NCBI GenBank assembly: GCA_036679645.1
Contig: JAZDCY010000060.1
Coordinates: forward strand, 1-64,000
Source: Gemmatimonadota bacterium
Lineage (GTDB): Bacteria > Gemmatimonadota > Gemmatimonadetes > Gemmatimonadales > GWC2-71-9
Reading direction: 5' to 3'
Length of the DNA: 64,000 nucleotides
Part shown: positions 28,251 to 38,488 of the stretch, piece after piece
Position numbering within the stretch: position 1 is the first letter of the stretch
How the letters are laid out: every line of letters begins with the position of its first letter
Made by a program: the position numbers and the translations under genes
Notes under the pieces: generated by a model
What the model was told of the DNA's origin: nothing
The model's input: the letters and a program-made list of their open reading frames with translations, nothing else
Database searches by the model: none

Positions 28251-30299
28251 ATGATAGAGAGTCTCAAGCACAAGCCGCTCACCAAACGACCCGACCGCCT
28301 GACGTTTCCCGGTCGGGTGCTCTTCCTCGTGGACGATGCGCTGCTCATGCGGCGTCAGCTGGAGGGAGGAGACCTTCCCTGGCCGCCCGGTGCGGCGTTG
28401 CGAGACAACATCTCCACCGACGAGATCACGCCGGCCTACATCTGTTACTACTACGACGACACACTCGGTGATTTTCCCTACCTGGGATTGCAGGCGGGCG
28501 CCGAGTTCCCAGTCGAGCGCGAAACCGTACGAGCGGGCGGGTTCGTCTGTTCCGTCAGCGGCAAACGCCGGGGGAAAGGGTCCTCGCGCGAGCAATCGCC
28601 GTACGCAGAGATGTGCGCAGGCATCCAGTTGGTGATCGCGGAAAACATCGAGCGCATTTACCGGGAGAACTGTCAGAACCTGGGCATGCTCACGAGCACG
28701 GATTTTGGGTTGATCGGCCGCGTGCGCGCCGGCGAGGCCATTCCGCTGACCGACTTCACCGCCGGCGAAGGCGACATCACGCGGGGCGTTATCGAGTATG
28801 GCGGTCTCTTCCACTACAATGTGGCGCGTCTGCAGGGCAGGGTATCCGTGCCGGAGGTGGACACCCCCGCCCGTCCAATGACCCTTGCGGAGAAGATCAT
28901 CGCGCGTCACTGGGTGACCGATCTCGCGCACGACACGGTGGGTGTGCCGCACGTGAAGCCCGGCGACGAGGGGTTTGTGCGGACGGACATCCGCTTCAGC
29001 CACGAATACGTCACTCCCATGGCTGCCATCTTCTGGGAAGATCTGGTAGGGACGGACGAGCGCGTGGTCGATCCGGATTCCATTTTCATGTTCCGCGATC
29101 ACCTCACGTTCCTCGACCTCGTGATGACCGAGGCGCGCAAGGCCGAGGGACTCTTGGATGTCGCCCTCGAGCTGAAGGCAAAGCAGGAGGATTTCTCAGC
29201 CAAGCAGGGCATCACGCTCTACGGCGAGTTGGGCCGCCAACTCCAGGGGCGCCACGGTATTCCCACCGGATCCGAGGCGATATGCCACTCGAAGATTCTC
29301 GAGCAGCACGCCCTTCCCGGCCATCTCATTGTGGGAACCGACTCGCACACGCCGCACGCCGGTGCGATGGGCGCGATTGCTTTTGGCGTGGGCACGACGG
29401 CAATCTTCAATTCGTGGCTCACCAAGGACGTGCGCATCAAGGTGCCGCCCTCGGTGCTCGTGCGTGTGACCGGGGACAAGCCGCCGGGGATTACCGCGAA
29501 GGACTACATGTTGCAGATCCTGCGGCATCCGTACGTGAGGGATGGGCACGCGATCGGCAAGGTCGTGGAGTACGCGGGCGATGCGGTGCGAGGGCTGGAT
29601 ATCGATGAACGTGCCACGATGACCAACATGGCGGCGGAGGTCGGCGCGTTCACCGGTGTCATCAGGCCGGATGAGAAGTCGATCGAGTTTCTCTCTCGTG
29701 AACGCGGTGTGGATCCGGAAAAGGTGCGGCCATTGCTGGAGGGGCTCTTCTCAGATGCAGATGCCGAATACGAGAAGATCATTGATATCGACGCGGGCGC
29801 GTTGAAGCCGATGGTCGCCTTGCCCGGTGATCCCGGAAATGGGCTCTTCATTGATGAACTCGGCGACCGGGTGAAGGTCGACATTGCCTATGCGGGCTCG
29901 TGCACCGCCGGCAAGAAATCCGATATGGACATGTACGCCGCCGTGTTCCGTGATGCGCTGGACCGTGGCGAGCGCGTGCACGCGGACGTGAAGTGCTTCA
30001 TTCAGTGCGGATCACAGGAGGTGAAACGGTATGCGGAAGAACGGGGCTACCTCGAGATCTTCGAGAAGGCCGGCGCCGTTTTCATCGAGCCTAGCTGTGG
30101 GGCGTGCATCAACGCCGGGCCCGGCGTGTCATACGACACTGACACGGTGACGATCAGCGCCATCAACCGGAACTTCCCCGGCCGGTCCGGTCCGGGACGG
30201 CTCTACCTCGCTAATCCCTATACGACGGCGGCCTCCGCAATCGCTGGGTACATCACTGCCTGGGAGCCACGGAAGGTCGGTGCCGGGGTCTCGGTCTAG
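28251..30299 (+). CDS. aconitase-family hydratase, LeuD-like swivel domain fused N-terminal to LeuC-like domain
   Basis: DNISTDEITP and GSSREQS (small subunit), then MTLAEKI, GTDSHT, TMTNMAAE, GSCTAG, SCGACI, NRNFPGRSG (large subunit). Confidence 0.9.
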   Translation: MIESLKHKPLTKRPDRLTFPGRVLFLVDDALLMRRQLEGGDLPWPPGAALRDNISTDEITPAYICYYYDDTLGDFPYLGLQAGAEFPVERETVRAGGFVCSVSGKRRGKGSSREQSPYAEMCAGIQLVIAENIERIYRENCQNLGMLTSTDFGLIGRVRAGEAIPLTDFTAGEGDITRGVIEYGGLFHYNVARLQGRVSVPEVDTPARPMTLAEKIIARHWVTDLAHDTVGVPHVKPGDEGFVRTDIRFSHEYVTPMAAIFWEDLVGTDERVVDPDSIFMFRDHLTFLDLVMTEARKAEGLLDVALELKAKQEDFSAKQGITLYGELGRQLQGRHGIPTGSEAICHSKILEQHALPGHLIVGTDSHTPHAGAMGAIAFGVGTTAIFNSWLTKDVRIKVPPSVLVRVTGDKPPGITAKDYMLQILRHPYVRDGHAIGKVVEYAGDAVRGLDIDERATMTNMAAEVGAFTGVIRPDEKSIEFLSRERGVDPEKVRPLLEGLFSDADAEYEKIIDIDAGALKPMVALPGDPGNGLFIDELGDRVKVDIAYAGSCTAGKKSDMDMYAAVFRDALDRGERVHADVKCFIQCGSQEVKRYAEERGYLEIFEKAGAVFIEPSCGACINAGPGVSYDTDTVTISAINRNFPGRSGPGRLYLANPYTTAASAIAGYITAWEPRKVGAGVSV

Positions 30300-31658: not shown

Positions 31659-31735
31659 CGTGTCCGCAGTGTTAGCGCACAGCGGAATTTCCTGCCAAGA
31701 TAGAGCCCCGAGCCTGATTCTGCGATGCGTGTGCG

Positions 31736-31831
31736 ATTGATTGCTTGCGCGCCCTAATTGACCGGTTCCGATTCCGAATTGATGCGTTCCATCCCCACAT
31801 TGACGTTGGCTTGCTTGACGCCGGCTATGTT
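31736..31831 (+). promoter_or_regulatory. phased direct-repeat promoter (putative SARP-type operator)
   Basis: ATTGA at 31736, 31757, 31778 and 31799 (exact 21 nt period), TTGC at 31811, -10-like TATGTT at 31826. Confidence 0.6.
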
Positions 31832-31885
31832 CGGCACGGTTGATCGAACACAGTGAATCTCACACCGGCGTCGGAGGAAGACGGA

Positions 31886-32098
31886 ATGTTGAAGAACAAG
31901 ATTCGGGCGATCGTGCCCATCGTCGCATTGGTCCTCGTTGCAGCCTGTTCGGATTCCACAGGCCCCGGGGCGCCGGAACTGGCGGAGATTCAGCAGGAGA
32001 GTCCGGAACAGGATCAAGCGAATAGAATACGGGGCATCGACACCGACACGAAGCGGAAGACCCCGCTCGATCAAGAGCGCGAAGACAGGGAACGGTAG
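31886..32098 (+). CDS. small lipopeptide 1 (70 aa)
   Basis: GGAGG RBS at 31873; signal peptide with VAAC lipobox, then SDSTGP; acidic tail; paralog of 34412..34603. Confidence 0.8.
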   Translation: MLKNKIRAIVPIVALVLVAACSDSTGPGAPELAEIQQESPEQDQANRIRGIDTDTKRKTPLDQEREDRER

Positions 32099-32110
32099 CT
32101 AGCGGAGAAA

Positions 32111-32197
32111 GCCGGCATACCCTTATCCATCCCACCTGCCACGGAGCAGTGCCGGCCTTAGGGGGTGTACAGCGAAAACGCTGTGCGCTCCCTCCTC
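32111..32197 (+). ncRNA. putative structured 3' RNA element/terminator, copy 1
   Basis: Stem GCCGGCAT/GTGCCGGC, then hairpin GGGGGTGTACAGCG-AAAA-CGCTGTGCGCTCCC. Confidence 0.5.
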
Positions 32198-32243
32198 CCG
32201 TTTTGGGGTGCGCGGTGAGCTGTGCGCGGGTGGGTGGGGGGGG

Positions 32244-34208
32244 TTACCCGGCTTGGTGACGTAGAGATTCGTGTCGCTGCTCGAGGCGCTTTCGCTGACC
32301 GGGAGTGAGGAGTTCCGACAAGACAACCTCGCGGAGCAACGCGGCCTCGACGAAATACCGATCTCCATCGAACGAGACGATGTGATGCCGCTCGAGTTGA
32401 GCGAGTGCATCTTCGATATCTGAGGTTGCGATATCCAGCAGTCCACTCAAGACGTCGGGTTGAACTTCGGAACCGCCGACGCAGGTCCCGACGAGCACGT
32501 CCTTTGCGGTGGCACTGAGCAGTTGGACGCGCTCCATGGTAGCCGCTTTCACTAGCTGCGGGATGTCGAACGGCACCGGAGTTTCGAGCGTGACGTTCTC
32601 GAGCGGCCACACAAGCGCCTCGCCACGCAGCGATGAAACCTCGGCGAGTCCACGCAGCAAGGACACGGTAAGGAACGGATCGCCTCCGGTCTCGAAATCC
32701 ACGCGCCGCGCGAGGCGGGCCAGTTGCTCCTCCCCGTCACACCAGGGCGCCATCTCTTGCACGAGCGCGCGGACCTCGTCACCCGAGAACAGCTCGAGCT
32801 CGACGGTTCCCCCGGCTAGGCGTCTGCCGACATCCCCCAGGAGCTTTGTGAGCCCGGTGTATTCACCCTTGGCGTCTTCGCAAGTGCTGAGCACGACGAG
32901 GATGGGGCGACCGATAGCCGTGCCAATGGCGCCTCGCAACGCCGACAACGTGGCTTCGTCGGCCAGGTGTGCGTCGTCGATGACGACCGCGAGCGGAGTT
33001 TCCTCGGCGATCGCCTCGAATAGCCCGCCCAGGGCATTCCCAATATCGGTATGGCCGAGCCCGGACATCGGCTCGAACCGTTCCGCCAATCGCGGGACGA
33101 CCGACGCGAGCATGCGTAGAGCGGTCGGATCGGTCGCGGCAAGACCCGGCGCATCGAACAGACCGCCTCGCATCAGCTGCCGCAGTGTGCTCCATGGTGT
33201 CCCGGGGTCGGTTCCCAGGGGATTGGCCAGCGCGATCATCCCACCTTCCAATCGCCACCGATTCACGCACTCCGACAGGAGCCGGGTTTTTCCTCGTCCG
33301 GCCAGCGCACTCACGACCAGCACGCGGGGACCTTGGGCAAGTGCCATGGACAACTCGGTGAATGCGCGGTTGTGCTCCCGCTCCCGCCCCACGAGCGGTG
33401 GTTCCGCGTCGGTATGCACCAGCGATGCGCGCCGCCACCGACCTTCGCGAATCCGCTCGGCCAGGGCGCGCAGCTCCTTGCTGGGCGGCACACTGTACTC
33501 GCGCTCTATGTGCCGAGCGAAATCACGATACGTAATGAGTGCGCCGGAGGAGTCGCCGCTAAGCGCGGATGCGCGCATTTGCAGCCGTACGGCCGCTTCG
33601 GCTTCGGCATCGATACCGAGCGCCCGTTGGGCCACAGTCTGAGCGACCTCGAACTCAGATGTCGAGAGCGCCTGCTCTCCGCTGTCGATCAACGAAGAGA
33701 GACTGCGGTTGCGGAGTCGCGCGCGCTCCTGCTCTAGCCACTGCTCGAACGCGGGCGCATCGGGAAGGCTCAGGCCGTCGAGGAACTCTCCGTCCCCTTC
33801 CCCGTCGCCGAGAGCATCCACGCGCAGTTGCTCGCCGCTCAGCGTGATCGCGTCGCCGCGCGAAATGAGGCGCTTGGCGCCAAGTGCGGCCCGCAGCCGG
33901 CGCACGGCCTCGTTGAGTGAATGGCGGGCGCGGGCCTGGTCCTTTTCGGGCCACAACAAGCCCATGAGATGGTCGCGGGACCGTGTGTGCTGCGGCGAAA
34001 GTGCGAGATACGCCAATAACGCCACGTGTTTCCGCCACATGACGTCGGCCGCGGGCTCCTCGCCGTCCACCAGGACGGCCGGGGGCCCGAGGCATCTCAT
34101 CTCGAGAGATCTGGGTTTCCCGAACATTGTACGCAAGCCGCTGTAATATCTCGTTTTGCGGTCAGATGTGGTACTAGACGTCCGGGTTGCATCTGGGTTG
34201 TGACTCAT
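32244..34208 (-). CDS. SARP-type wHTH-BTAD + AAA ATPase transcriptional regulator 1
   Basis: CLGPP...ALLAYLAL...RDHLMGLLWP...ARHSLNEAVRRLR, FEQWL..ER, PLVGRE, ALAGRGKT, VIDDAH, TGGDP. Start may be 34127. Confidence 0.88.
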   Translation of the reverse strand: MSHNPDATRTSSTTSDRKTRYYSGLRTMFGKPRSLEMRCLGPPAVLVDGEEPAADVMWRKHVALLAYLALSPQHTRSRDHLMGLLWPEKDQARARHSLNEAVRRLRAALGAKRLISRGDAITLSGEQLRVDALGDGEGDGEFLDGLSLPDAPAFEQWLEQERARLRNRSLSSLIDSGEQALSTSEFEVAQTVAQRALGIDAEAEAAVRLQMRASALSGDSSGALITYRDFARHIEREYSVPPSKELRALAERIREGRWRRASLVHTDAEPPLVGREREHNRAFTELSMALAQGPRVLVVSALAGRGKTRLLSECVNRWRLEGGMIALANPLGTDPGTPWSTLRQLMRGGLFDAPGLAATDPTALRMLASVVPRLAERFEPMSGLGHTDIGNALGGLFEAIAEETPLAVVIDDAHLADEATLSALRGAIGTAIGRPILVVLSTCEDAKGEYTGLTKLLGDVGRRLAGGTVELELFSGDEVRALVQEMAPWCDGEEQLARLARRVDFETGGDPFLTVSLLRGLAEVSSLRGEALVWPLENVTLETPVPFDIPQLVKAATMERVQLLSATAKDVLVGTCVGGSEVQPDVLSGLLDIATSDIEDALAQLERHHIVSFDGDRYFVEAALLREVVLSELLTPGQRKRLEQRHESLRHQAG

Positions 34209-34314
34209 TCAGTAGAGCAATACGGGTGAAGTGATCGGAAAGATGCGAAGAAGGCGGAATGGCGAGAAGGGCGCTTGAGGGCGGGAATAGGTTAAATGGT
34301 TATACGACAGTGAG

Positions 34315-34367
34315 TTGACAGCAGTTGGCGGGGGATTGAGAGCTGCTTGAGGGGTGGTCCCTAGCTT
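34315..34367 (+). promoter_or_regulatory. phased direct-repeat promoter (putative SARP-type operator)
   Basis: TTGA 34315, TTGG 34325, TTGA 34336, TTGA 34347, -10-like TAGCTT at 34362. Confidence 0.6.
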
Positions 34368-34411
34368 TGCTTTCAGTAAGTGACGGCAATGACCTGCTCT
34401 GGAGGCGAACC

Positions 34412-34603
34412 ATGAAAGCCAAGCGCATTTTCCCCGCAATCGCGATCACGCTGATCCTCGCTCTTTCTGCCTGCTCAGACGCTCTCGGGCCGACCGGTCA
34501 GAACCCAGAAGTCGCCACGGTGCTCGAGAACCAGGACGACTCCAGCCAGGACGCGCAGGGACAGCAGGGCAAGAAGCAGGATAACCCGCTCGAACAGCAG
34601 TAG
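34412..34603 (+). CDS. small lipopeptide 2 (63 aa)
   Basis: GGAGG RBS at 34401; LSAC lipobox, then SDALGP; Q/D-rich tail ending NPLEQQ. Confidence 0.8.
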   Translation: MKAKRIFPAIAITLILALSACSDALGPTGQNPEVATVLENQDDSSQDAQGQQGKKQDNPLEQQ

Positions 34604-34622
34604 GGATCGCTGAGAGGTTCTA

Positions 34623-34701
34623 CCGCCGGGAAGATCGACCATCTCGCCTCGGAGCAAACCGGCGGCCTAGGGGGCGCGGAGGGAAACCTCCCGCCCCTCC
34701 T
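34623..34701 (+). ncRNA. putative structured 3' RNA element/terminator, copy 2
   Basis: Stem CCGCCGG/CCGGCGG, then hairpin GGGGGCGCGGAGG-GAAA-CCTCCCGCCCCT. Confidence 0.5.
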
Positions 34702-34766
34702 TCCTTTCCCCCCAACCCTTCCACACCACCCCCGGTGGGAGGGCGGAAAGGCGGAAAGAGTAGCCG

Positions 34767-35849
34767 CTATCTGCCGCCTCGCATCCGCTCCACCACCATA
34801 TTGCCCATGTCGGAGGTCGCGATGCCGCTGCGGGCGTCGGCCGATTTCACCTGACCGCTCGTGAGGAGGTCCGCGATCGCGTCGTCGATGCGTTTGGCGC
34901 CGCTCGTCTCGCCAAGGAAGTCGAGCATCATGCCCGCGGCCGAGATGGCGCCGAGTGGGCAGGCGACGTTTTTGCCGGCGTACTTGGGTGCCGAGCCGTG
35001 GATCGGCTCGAACATCGACGTCTGACCTGGGTGGATGTTCCCTGAGGCGGCGATGCCCATGCCGCCCTGGAGCATGGCGCCCAGGTCGGTGATGATGTCG
35101 CCGAACAGGTTCGTGGTGACGAGCACGTCGAACCACTCGGGGTTCTTGATCATCCACATACAGCACGCGTCGACGTACGCGTGGTCCTGCTCAACCTGCG
35201 GGAAATCCTCCGCGACTTGCGCGTACACACGCGTCCAGAGGTCGTGGGGCCGTATGGCGTTCGCCTTGTCGACAAGCATCACACGCGCCTGGTGTCCGTT
35301 GCCTTTTTCCTTCGCGCGTCTCTCGGCGAGCTCGAAGGCGTAGCGCGATGCCCGCTCACAGCCCTTCCATGTGTACACGCCGTTCACGAGGGCAACCTCG
35401 TCGGGCGTGTTCTTCTTCAGGTGCCCGCCGATCTGCGCATAGAGTCCCTCGGTATTCTCGCGGACGACGATGAAGTCGATGTCGTCGGGTCCCTTGCCCT
35501 TCAACGGACAGAGGTGCTCGCTATAGAGCTTGATGGGCCGGAGATTGATGTAGAGATCGAGGCCGAATCGCAGTCCCAGAATGACCGATCGCTCGACCAG
35601 CCCAGGCTCGACGTCCGGATGCCCGATGGCGCCGAGCAGTACGGCGTCGAGCGTGCGCCACTCGTCGATGACCGAGTCGGGGACCAACTCCCTGGTCTTG
35701 AGGTAGTAGTCGCCGCTGTAGGGGTAGTCGACCAGTTCGTAGGTGAACCCCTCGAGCTTGGCTACAGCCGCGAGGGCTTTGAGCGCTTCGTCGGTGACCT
35801 CGGGTCCAATACCGTCACCGGGGAGGACCCCGATCGTGTAGGATGCCAT
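34767..35849 (-). CDS. leuB: 3-isopropylmalate dehydrogenase (beta-decarboxylating dehydrogenase family)
   Basis: PGDGIGPEV, NLRP, VRENTEG.Y, VDKAN, NLFGDIITD, FEPIHGSAP. Confidence 0.85.
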   Translation of the reverse strand: MASYTIGVLPGDGIGPEVTDEALKALAAVAKLEGFTYELVDYPYSGDYYLKTRELVPDSVIDEWRTLDAVLLGAIGHPDVEPGLVERSVILGLRFGLDLYINLRPIKLYSEHLCPLKGKGPDDIDFIVVRENTEGLYAQIGGHLKKNTPDEVALVNGVYTWKGCERASRYAFELAERRAKEKGNGHQARVMLVDKANAIRPHDLWTRVYAQVAEDFPQVEQDHAYVDACCMWMIKNPEWFDVLVTTNLFGDIITDLGAMLQGGMGIAASGNIHPGQTSMFEPIHGSAPKYAGKNVACPLGAISAAGMMLDFLGETSGAKRIDDAIADLLTSGQVKSADARSGIATSDMGNMVVERMRGGR

Positions 35850-36592: not shown

Positions 36593-38488
36593 CTAATCTA
36601 ATCGCGTGCGTGCGCCGGACCACTCTGCGAAACGTGTCTCGAAGCGCTTGCGGCGGCTGGGTGTCAGGAACTCGCCGCGTATTACCGCGGCAATGATCGG
36701 AGCTTCCAAGTGGAACCGATCTCCGTCGAACACCACGAACCGGTGCCGTTCGAGTTCCTCGAGACCACGATCTACGGTGGCCGCGTCGAGTTCCGTGAGA
36801 GCGACGATCGCCTCGGGGTCGATGACGCGCGGCCCGATCGTCGCCGCGACCAGAACGTGACGCCCCTGCTCGGAAAGCTCGTTTGCCCGAGCAATCGTCA
36901 TGAGCCGGACGAGTTCCGGAACGTCGAATGGAACGGCTGAATCGATCGTATGACGTGGAGGCGGCCACTGGGTCGCGTCCTCGCGGAGCGCTGTCACGCG
37001 GCGGAGACCCTGCAACAACGTGGTTGCGAGGAGTGGGTTCCCGCTCGTCTCGTACCAGACCCGGCGTGCGAGCCGGTCGCGCTGCTCATCGTCGGGGCAC
37101 CAATCAGCCAGCAGCATGACGAGCGACGTGATATCGGCCTCGGTAAGGGGACCGAGGCGAACGATCATTCCCGGCAGACGACGGCCGATTTCCCCGACCA
37201 ATCCGATGCGGCTACCTTGTGCGGTCCCGCCGTCCGCGGCGGCAACGGCCAGCAGCACCGGCTCGTCGCGTAGCTGGCCCATGGCTGCCTGCCAGGCTCC
37301 CAACGTGCTGGCGTCCGCCCAATGCCCGTCGTCCACGACGATCGCCACCGGCTGCTCTTCGGCGACCGCTCGGATGAGCGACACGAGTGCCGTGGCGACG
37401 TGTGCGTGATCCAGCGCCGGCGAGGGATCCGCTCGTTCGCACAGCTCCGGTATGACGCTCGCGAGCACCGCGAGGGCGGCGGGATCTGTTCCGGCGAGCC
37501 CGGGGGCGTCGAGTAGACCTCCGCGGGCCAGCGCGCGCAACGTGCTCCACTCGGCATCACGATCCTGTTCCAGCGCGCGACCGACCGCGAGCAAACCGCC
37601 GTCGAGTTGCCAGCGATTCACGCACTCGCTCAGAAGACGAGTCTTTCCACTTCCGCTGTCACCGAGTACGGCGGCGGTGCGGCTCGCTCCCCGAAAAGCC
37701 TCCCCTACGAGCCGGAAGATCTCCTCGTGCACGGCGGCCCGGCCGACGAGCGGGGGATCCACATCCGGCGACGCCACCGAGCGTCGGCGCCAGCGCCCGT
37801 TGCGGATGCGCTCCGCGAGCGCCGTCAGCTCGCGGCTGGGATCCTCGGCGAACTCCGCCTCGAGACGGTTGGCGAATTCGTGGAACCCGCGTAGCGCACC
37901 GGCAGCATCCCCCGCCAAGGTCGCGGCGCGCATCCGCAACCGCGCGGCCGGCTCGGAGTACGGGTCGAGCGCAAGCACGCGGGCTGCCGCCTCGTGCGCC
38001 TCGGCAAACCGCAGCGCGGCCAGCTCCCGCTCGCCGGTCCGCAACAAGGCCGAACTTGCCTGGGTCCGATGTCGCCCGCGCTCGGCCATGACCCAATCCT
38101 CAAAGGCCGGGGCGTCGTCGAGGGTCAGGCCCTCCAGGAAATCCCCGCGCGTAAGCGCCCGCTCGAGATCGTCCGCGTCGACGGAAAGTGCGGTGTCGTC
38201 GAGCGTGAGTGTGTCGCCCTTCGAGCGGATTCGGTCTGTCCCGAGTCCGGAGCGGAGTCGCCGCACCGCCTCGTTGAGTGAGTGGCGCGCCTTCGTCTGG
38301 TCCTTTTCGGGCCAGAGGAGCCCGAGCAGGTGTTCCCGCGACCTGGTCCGGTCGGGCGAGAGCGCCAGGTAGGCCAACAGCGCCACGTTCTTGCGCCATA
38401 GCACGTCCGTGGGCGGCTCCGCTCCGTCGATCCGGATGACCGGAGGGCCGAAACACCGGAGCTCCAGGGTCGGCAACTGATCGGGCAT
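36593..38488 (-). CDS. SARP-type wHTH-BTAD + AAA ATPase transcriptional regulator 2 (paralog of 32244..34208)
   Basis: CFGPP...WRKNVALLAYLAL...ARHSLNEAVRRLR, PLVGR, GDSGSGKT, VVDDGHW, TSGNP. Confidence 0.88.
   Translation of the reverse strand: MPDQLPTLELRCFGPPVIRIDGAEPPTDVLWRKNVALLAYLALSPDRTRSREHLLGLLWPEKDQTKARHSLNEAVRRLRSGLGTDRIRSKGDTLTLDDTALSVDADDLERALTRGDFLEGLTLDDAPAFEDWVMAERGRHRTQASSALLRTGERELAALRFAEAHEAAARVLALDPYSEPAARLRMRAATLAGDAAGALRGFHEFANRLEAEFAEDPSRELTALAERIRNGRWRRRSVASPDVDPPLVGRAAVHEEIFRLVGEAFRGASRTAAVLGDSGSGKTRLLSECVNRWQLDGGLLAVGRALEQDRDAEWSTLRALARGGLLDAPGLAGTDPAALAVLASVIPELCERADPSPALDHAHVATALVSLIRAVAEEQPVAIVVDDGHWADASTLGAWQAAMGQLRDEPVLLAVAAADGGTAQGSRIGLVGEIGRRLPGMIVRLGPLTEADITSLVMLLADWCPDDEQRDRLARRVWYETSGNPLLATTLLQGLRRVTALREDATQWPPPRHTIDSAVPFDVPELVRLMTIARANELSEQGRHVLVAATIGPRVIDPEAIVALTELDAATVDRGLEELERHRFVVFDGDRFHLEAPIIAAVIRGEFLTPSRRKRFETRFAEWSGARTRLD

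Follow-up and report, generated by a model that had tools for sequence, protein, structure and literature searches.

A 64,000-nucleotide (nt) stretch of contig JAZDCY010000060.1 (assembly GCA_036679645.1) from a Gemmatimonadota bacterium, hereafter the window, carries two copies of a two-stem RNA element, each placed behind a small lipoprotein gene at a locus with regulator genes of the SARP type. The element belongs to a real RNA family that has no Rfam entry and is tied to a SARP regulator and to a predicted promoter. Iterated covariance models (R1, R2 and R3) gave a total of 14 copies in 13 genomes and seven genera, all from the Gemmatimonadota family of the window. The element is very probably a functional RNA. 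We lean towards reading it as a structured RNA of about 90 nt behind a predicted SARP-activated promoter, which would act as an Hfq-independent antisense small RNA (sRNA) on ribosome-binding regions of mRNAs through a C-rich loop.

Two RNA copies in the window

Both sequences were present at the positions and with the letters given in an earlier note on this DNA. They start 12-19 nt past the lipoprotein stop codons and share a layout of closing stem (P1), loop of about 30 nt, strong hairpin (P2) and pyrimidine tail. Copy 1 folded with z = -5.5 (0 of 200 shuffles equally stable) against z = -0.9 for the reverse strand, the far better folding of the + strand being due to G-U pairs; the fold of copy 2 was weaker (z = -2.4, 3 of 200 shuffles equally stable). 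The note had held that the stems differ between copies with pairing kept, which is true of P2 and not of P1, whose core GCCGG/CCGGC is the same in both copies, so that this pair of sequences shows covariation in P2 only.

The loop pattern common to both copies occurred three times in the window's own genome (G000), two of these being the window copies, and a hidden Markov model (HMM) of the two copies found no further copy at E < 8 in its 4.05 Mb. The window copies are thus the only two in G000, and each other member genome has one. Such a copy number is too low for a generic dispersed repeat or a repetitive extragenic palindromic (REP) sequence, the alternative that the note had raised. Copy 2 was missed by a sequence-only HMM of copy 1 and of the copy in G001, a genome of the same genus (g1); the case for its homology is made by the gene in front (a paralogue), by promoter and position, and by P1 and the GGAGCA block. 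The Rfam search that the note had suggested gave no family: no Rfam 15 covariance model matched the window, with chance matches only (E >= 0.41) in 31700-34900, and ten homologous loci returned a single chance match (E 0.54, 25 of 45 bits).

The features of the locus are as follows, in window positions.
31737..31831, + strand: predicted SARP-type promoter 1, four TTGA boxes with a 21-bp period and a fifth box 11 bp further; -10 box TATGTT at 31826-31831; boxes kept in G001
31886..32098, + strand: small lipoprotein gene 1, 70 aa, lipobox Cys21, acidic tail, Shine-Dalgarno (SD) sequence GGAGG; homologues P0002-P0015
32111..32200, + strand: RNA copy 1, P1 32111-32117/32150-32156, loop 32118-32149, P2 32161-32192, pyrimidine tail
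32128-32148, + strand: conserved core of the copy 1 loop, CCCACC at 32131-32136
32244..34130, - strand: SARP-AAA regulator 1, Trans_reg_C, BTAD and AAA_16 domains; open frame extends to 34208; convergent with unit 1, divergent from unit 2
34315..34367, + strand: predicted SARP-type promoter 2, TTGA boxes at 21 and 11 bp; -10 box TAGCTT at 34362-34367
34412..34603, + strand: small lipoprotein gene 2, 63 aa; about 31-36% identical to gene 1, its paralogue
34623..34705, + strand: RNA copy 2, P1 34623-34629/34659-34665, P2 34670-34698, pyrimidine tail
34640-34656, + strand: loop core of copy 2, diverged, CUCGCC where others have CCYACC
36593..38488, - strand: SARP-AAA regulator 2, paralogue of regulator 1 (48% identity)

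Family membership and association with SARP genes

R1 was built solely from the three genus-g1 copies. Applied with strict filters to 150 genomes, it added no copy at E < 0.02. With the filters off, the two top-scoring matches in 20 SARP loci (97 kb) lay just past SARP stop codons (G074 and G057), and in 37 promoter loci (91 kb) it gave six matches at E <= 1 (G221, G057, G096, G172, G003 and G123), each lying in sense, downstream of a promoter of this type. In the opposite direction, a sequence-only HMM built on the ten non-g1 copies ranked copy 1 top in its own genome (E 0.026) and missed copy 2.

R2 and R3 covered 310 and 230 genome slots, respectively, with some overlap. The held-out matches with E < 5e-4 (G212, G265, G119 and G310) adjoined a SARP 3' end and carried CCCACC in four of four cases, while none of the 45 weaker ones had a SARP inside the 1.5-kb flanks (49 held-out matches examined, one seen twice; six weak R2 matches lay outside this set). 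In a 150-genome sample of the phylum, no R3 match outside the family fell below E 3.6e-3, and the six weak ones had no SARP nearby. Relatives of G265 yielded no further confident copy, locus L369 being left out.

The RNA is linked to a SARP gene in 13 of the 14 copies. It is convergent with the SARP 3' end in ten, divergent in copy 2, G221 and G096, and without a SARP in the fetched stretch of G003. SARPs adjoining the RNA clustered on a quick tree (2 changes, compared with 6.8 when shuffled), a pattern compatible with one origin plus losses. In this SARP subfamily a small lipoprotein gene with the same promoter is often found in convergent orientation, without the RNA element.

Simpler searches were less discriminating. 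A loop-pattern scan of 301 family genomes matched 24 genomes, about the control rate, and inspection of 27 sites left the window copies and the one in G001 as the only real ones. A site in G207 (L029), a near-match to the copy 1 loop behind a leucine-rich repeat lipoprotein gene and followed by a hairpin, was dropped because R1, R2 and R3 all failed to recover it; it also had no promoter boxes. A pattern scan of metagenomes returned 91 stretches, none with the architecture and many in one coding context, and a hand-written descriptor was too loose (53 matches in G000, three of them intergenic). Of two sequencing runs (X1 and X2) that were mapped, one near-identical contig, possibly the source, was obtained, and the motifs had no coverage in X2.

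Conserved structure and selection on the loop

In a 13-copy structural alignment fitted to the covariance model, P1 was paired in 98.7% of cells, pair 2 appearing as C-G, U-A or G-C and pair 5 once as A-U, and P2 showed double changes at 10 of 11 pairs. This pairing of P1 and P2 was matched by none of 500 shuffles and by no slid register. CCYACC was found in the loop of 12 of the 14 copies, and the motif or its variant had a predicted unpaired probability of 0.79-1.0 in 11 of the 13 folded copies. A nested UCCUC/GAGGA (CCUC/GAGG) stem is predicted in eight of the 14 copies, and G003 and G096 have another nested stem. The strand asymmetry in folding energy was mixed across the family.

Conservation of the loop was measured between G000 and G001, where an orthologue of copy 1 follows the orthologous lipoprotein gene. 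The loop core was identical at 20 of 21 positions, compared with 125 of 181 (69%) in the lipoprotein coding sequence and 65 of 159 (41%) at four-fold sites of the SARP gene (binomial P of about 2e-7 for the excess, in a loop-core window picked after the fact). The loop core of the 3' untranslated region (UTR) is therefore more conserved than the parent coding region, and P2 differs between the two genomes by four double changes, all in register. A loop kept at 20 of 21 positions at saturated synonymous divergence is more than a plain terminator requires.

These results bear out part of what the earlier note had proposed. Its covariance-model search of relatives led to the 14 copies, with P1 covarying in the wider family; the view that the element exceeds a plain terminator gains from a loop conserved in both sequence and structure; and the exposed C-rich motif it described corresponds to CCYACC, predicted unpaired in most copies. 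Its idea of a regulatory sRNA is strengthened by the stand-alone homologues described below, with their predicted promoter and U-run.

The SARP 3' end occurs twice in G001 (L019:1570-1720 and L002:3330-3420), as a fragment after the RNA and within a full gene elsewhere. The full gene lies on another contig and is followed by a hairpin remnant, as might result from a rearrangement, an insertion or an assembly break.

3'-UTR and stand-alone forms

The element occurs in two genetic contexts. Five copies (the two of the window, G001, G221 and G119) lie in the 3' UTR of small lipoprotein genes, and nine, spread over five genera, have no SD-led open reading frame (ORF) between the -10 box and P1. 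In the latter, the gap from the -10 box to P1 was 13-15 nt in G057, G123 and G172 and 36-80 nt in G003, G096, G265, G310, G074 and G212. The three genomes with the shortest gap belong to one genus and keep the promoter, P1, CCYACC, the nested stem and the U-run. A U-run on the promoter strand was found in seven of the 14 copies, all among the nine without ORF. G119, a lipoprotein 3' UTR with a stand-alone-type loop, bridges the two forms by its mixed arrangement.

An RNA able to stand alone behind its own predicted promoter, with a U-run, is most simply an sRNA. Stop-codon read-through was also considered, as three copies have GGAGCA in the same frame after TAG, for which the chance is 1 in 9, and was rejected because copies without an ORF exist.

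The predicted SARP-type promoter

Upstream of both window lipoprotein genes, TTGA boxes recur with a 21-bp period, followed 11 bp later by an extra box and then by a weak -10 box, an arrangement kept in G001. The promoter pattern gave 66 matches in 33 of the 301 family genomes, against one for the reversed control. In 13 of the 14 copies the promoter score exceeded the best of 400 random windows, a comparison that is partly circular for pattern-found copies and not so for G001, G074, G119, G212, G265 and G310. The last TTG lies 12 bp from the -10 box. Streptomyces SARP promoters have direct repeats separated by one or two turns of the helix beside the -10 box, with a spacing of 11 or 22 bp and the last repeat 8 bp from it (PMC10936776).

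Proposed mechanism

The AfsR-like SARP-AAA neighbour would bind the TTGAC repeats by the weak -10 box and activate transcription, as suggested by the repeat layout of Streptomyces SARP promoters, by the AfsR/afsS pair and by co-location. From the observed anatomy, the window transcript would be a lipoprotein mRNA of about 330-360 nt ending in the element, and nine homologues would be transcribed as the RNA alone with a short leader. P2 would end the transcript and P1 would clamp the loop, with CCYACC predicted to be single-stranded beside a predicted nested hairpin. In the 3'-UTR form, a putative cleavage by RNase E/G may free the RNA, or the whole mRNA may act; an RNase E/G gene was found in five of five genomes tested. 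The CACC/UCCU-rich loop, which resembles the anti-SD end of 16S rRNA, would then repress G-rich start regions in trans, forming a noncoding arm beside the lipoprotein. Hfq (PF17209) was found in none of these five genomes (86-96% complete), and the RNA is read as Hfq-independent on that ground.

Start regions in G000 were ranked as candidate targets. Copy 2 paired best, among 3522 start regions, with the nuoK/nuoL junction (-40.3 kcal/mol), surpassing 35 of 35 shuffled loops, and an AhpD-like gene has an 11-nt perfect match to loop 1.

A number of results weigh against this antisense reading. None of five candidate target sets was kept by conservation. Pairing at nuoK/nuoL was not kept in G001, G002 and G207, which leaves this target unsupported, and not excluded, for copy 2, as copy 2 had no fetched orthologue. 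The nuoH/nuoI junction failed the conservation test; the SARP mRNA reached p < 0.05 in one of ten cases; the AhpD-like match did so in none of nine other member genomes; the leaders of the regulon gave a combined p of 0.075 (21 leaders); and an SD-pattern screen of 23 loci in five genomes found no gene in common. In the RNA itself, P1 is mostly fixed in letters and not in pairing alone, which also fits protein recognition; CCYACC is missing in copy 2 and G221; the nested UCCUC/GAGGA stem is lacking in the window copies, G001 and G221; and no covariation was found in it. Terminator calling did not call the window copies, which have no U-run. The g1 and stand-alone subtypes are only moderately linked (R1 E values of 0.004-0.36), since the nested stem and CCYACC are missing in some copies, and no convincing copy was found at seven other loci with a SARP and a small lipoprotein gene (G194, G050, G093, G148, G017, G330 and G103).

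Apart from its evaluation as a target, the AhpD-like gene (L304:1797-2036, orthologues L314-L324) has a reading frame that ends at one and the same position, behind a CFY/CVY/CRY motif, in 12 of 12 genomes read. Conserved sequence continues past the stop, and the gene weakly matches the AhpD_rel_CFYUT selenoprotein model; the stop codon probably stands for selenocysteine.

Alternative explanations

Binding to a protein is the main rival, most P1 positions being fixed in sequence. The element would here be a SARP-induced noncoding RNA recognized, through the P1 letters and the CCYACC bulge, by an RNA-binding regulator or by the SARP-AAA protein in a feedback, and not by mRNAs. Three P1 pairs are invariant, a further two deviate in a single copy each, and free covariation is limited to pair 2; this explanation would account for that, as it would for the missing conserved mRNA target and for the persistence of the RNA beside the SARP gene. 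The richness of the loops in anti-SD-like runs speaks against it, and the loci examined had no conserved gene for an RNA-binding partner. The GGA motif of the earlier note is hard to maintain as a CsrA-type site: CsrA was found in only one of four genomes and is missing from the finds in G001 although the loop is kept there, and the predicted folds of eight of the 14 copies have GGA in a nested stem. Overall we consider protein binding unlikely, while giving it serious attention. That the element is only a 3'-end module in cis, a terminator plus a stem that blocks exonucleases, passed on together with the duplicated lipoprotein gene, its ORF-less copies being decayed loci, appears improbable. 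P2 is terminator-like in all copies, the leader of G074 retains an SD-like word without a start codon, and most SARP-lipoprotein loci manage without the element; yet the nearly invariant single-stranded loop would be superfluous for a terminator, and decay fits poorly with the three copies of one genus that keep the full set of features 13-15 nt after the -10 box, or with ORF-less copies in five genera.

Two further explanations were weighed. The element might act on the opposite strand, as the 3' end of the SARP mRNA or by antisense attenuation, or as DNA, as its convergence with the SARP 3' end in most copies would allow; this is highly improbable in view of the three divergent copies and of G003, of U-runs that lie on the promoter strand and of the strand preference of the copy 1 fold, although the energy asymmetry is mixed family-wide. 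Least credible to us is a fold-back of the loop onto the ribosome-binding site (RBS) of its own lipoprotein gene, which would silence the full-length mRNA until processing, in parallel to type I toxin mRNAs. In copy 2 the loop does pair with the SD and start codon of its own gene (-23.1 kcal/mol, rank 40 among 3522 start regions), a duplex by which the fold predicted for mRNA 2 is dominated. Copy 1, however, ranked only 2028 of 3522 against its own start, whole-mRNA folds of the other four 3'-UTR copies gave 0.3, 3.1, 0.0 and 1.0 RBS-loop pairs, and the nine ORF-less copies would be left unexplained.

Comparison with known systems

CsrB/RsmZ-type protein sponges carry many GGA motifs. The present element resembles them by the GGA in the small loop of copy 1 and G001, and differs by having a single GGA, by the predicted pairing of this motif in more than half of the copies and by the scarcity of CsrA.

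The element would work like a 3'-UTR-derived sRNA and is not CpxQ, CcsR or any Rfam member. CpxQ is an Hfq-requiring enterobacterial sRNA from the 3' UTR of cpxP, a region whose conservation exceeds that of the remaining gene (PMC9438474). The two systems would share a transcription factor that activates a small envelope-protein gene whose 3' UTR serves as a noncoding arm, but here no sequence or Rfam relation exists, Hfq was not found in the five genomes, the regulator is a SARP-AAA protein instead of a response regulator, and stand-alone copies occur too. The same source lists s-SodF and RsaC among 3'-UTR sRNAs that are Hfq-independent or of Gram-positive bacteria, s-SodF being described as Hfq-independent; their 3'-UTR origin is similar, and their sequences, parent genes and regulators are unrelated.

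In Rhodobacter, the CcsR (cuckoo) RNAs and ccaF1 (DUF1127) associate a gene of about 70 aa with co-transcribed 3'-UTR RNAs whose loops expose C-rich anti-SD sequences, in a layout of RNA and protein genes that varies by lineage (PMC8034643), features that the present loci would share. In contrast, the element is from another phylum, lacks CCUCCUCCC in its hairpin loops (this sequence is confined to the copy 1 tail), shows no DUF1127 and no Rfam match, and its fold consists of a closing stem with an internal loop, a nested hairpin and a terminator. The AfsR-afsS system of Streptomyces also combines a large SARP bearing an NTPase domain with a small neighbouring target gene and direct repeats near a weak -10 box (PMC10936776). 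It differs from the present loci, where TTGAC repeats are spaced at 21/11 bp and end 12 bp from the -10 box (8 bp in Streptomyces), Pfam indicates no tetratricopeptide repeats, the output is a lipoprotein and/or an RNA, and binding is predicted.

The literature on Gemmatimonadota within reach, which excluded most subscription papers, contained no sRNA and no account of this RNA. A preprint on noncoding clusters (bioRxiv 10.64898/2026.10.21.760802) names neither the phylum nor SARPs in its main text, and its supplements might list the RNA as an unnamed cluster.

Neighbouring genes and other SARP-type promoters

Both window regulators contain winged helix-turn-helix, BTAD and NTPase domains (PF00486, PF03704 and PF13191 in Pfam), and by this domain content are AfsR-like large SARPs. 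Regulator 2 is likely part of the second copy of a duplicated lipoprotein-RNA-SARP module; leuB-like and outer-membrane genes now stand between unit 2 and this regulator. No Pfam family was found in either small lipoprotein, and their named relatives are from Gemmatimonadota. A query of the ESM Atlas with homologue P0007 returned only unnamed small-protein clusters, and aligning the lipoprotein to the species genomes gave ten loci with one real orthologue. Elsewhere in the window (28251-30299), a single ORF has a LeuD-like domain fused ahead of a LeuC/aconitase-like domain.

SARP-type promoters were also seen at other loci. Five ATTGAC-type boxes with a 21-bp period (G000:C7:242086-242175) precede the gene of an 879-aa secreted protein, which likely belongs to the same SARP regulon. 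Genomes of genus g54 (G175, G212 and G242) have 5-12 SARP-type promoters each, with long 5' leaders that share repeated GACGCC units and precede secreted-protein or lipoprotein genes (L223, L234, L237-L240, L242, L248-L252 and L254); these repeats are possibly a separate leader RNA or an operator array. Loci L220 (G096) and L221 (G003) display tandem SARP-type promoters, the second leading to the stand-alone RNA and the first to a gene that we take, from its motifs, to be lytic-transglycosylase-like. The pattern also occurs, possibly by chance, upstream of groES in L197 (G292), beside what we assume to be a CIRCE-like inverted repeat. In G000, three tandem ORFs of 47-51 aa ending in ELEERIAP-like sequences (G000:C7:251660-252301, L313) are divergent from a BTAD-type regulator (252440-254689) and neighbour kinase, transporter and possible radical-SAM genes; they presumably resemble precursors of ribosomally synthesized and post-translationally modified peptides, and the one ORF tested had no NCBIfam match.

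Significance

Gemmatimonadota are common in soils and sediments. As no sRNA was found described for the phylum and the five genomes tested yielded no Hfq, the element offers an entry point to RNA regulation in this group. We judge it an even call whether a subfamily of Gemmatimonadota SARP-STAND regulators has a dedicated regulatory RNA output, with one RNA in both states under the same promoter. This would provide a natural series in which ORF loss turns a 3'-UTR sRNA into an independent gene, or the reverse, and, within the searches made, the first regulatory RNA system in this Hfq-less phylum and under a SARP. The occurrence of the RNA as both a 3' UTR and a stand-alone gene makes a proposed route of sRNA birth from UTRs testable on a tree, and the conserved TTGAC-repeat promoter defines a predicted regulon of a widespread, unstudied SARP subfamily. 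SARPs are activators of antibiotic and stress genes in Streptomyces, and an RNA output, if true, would extend what these regulators do.

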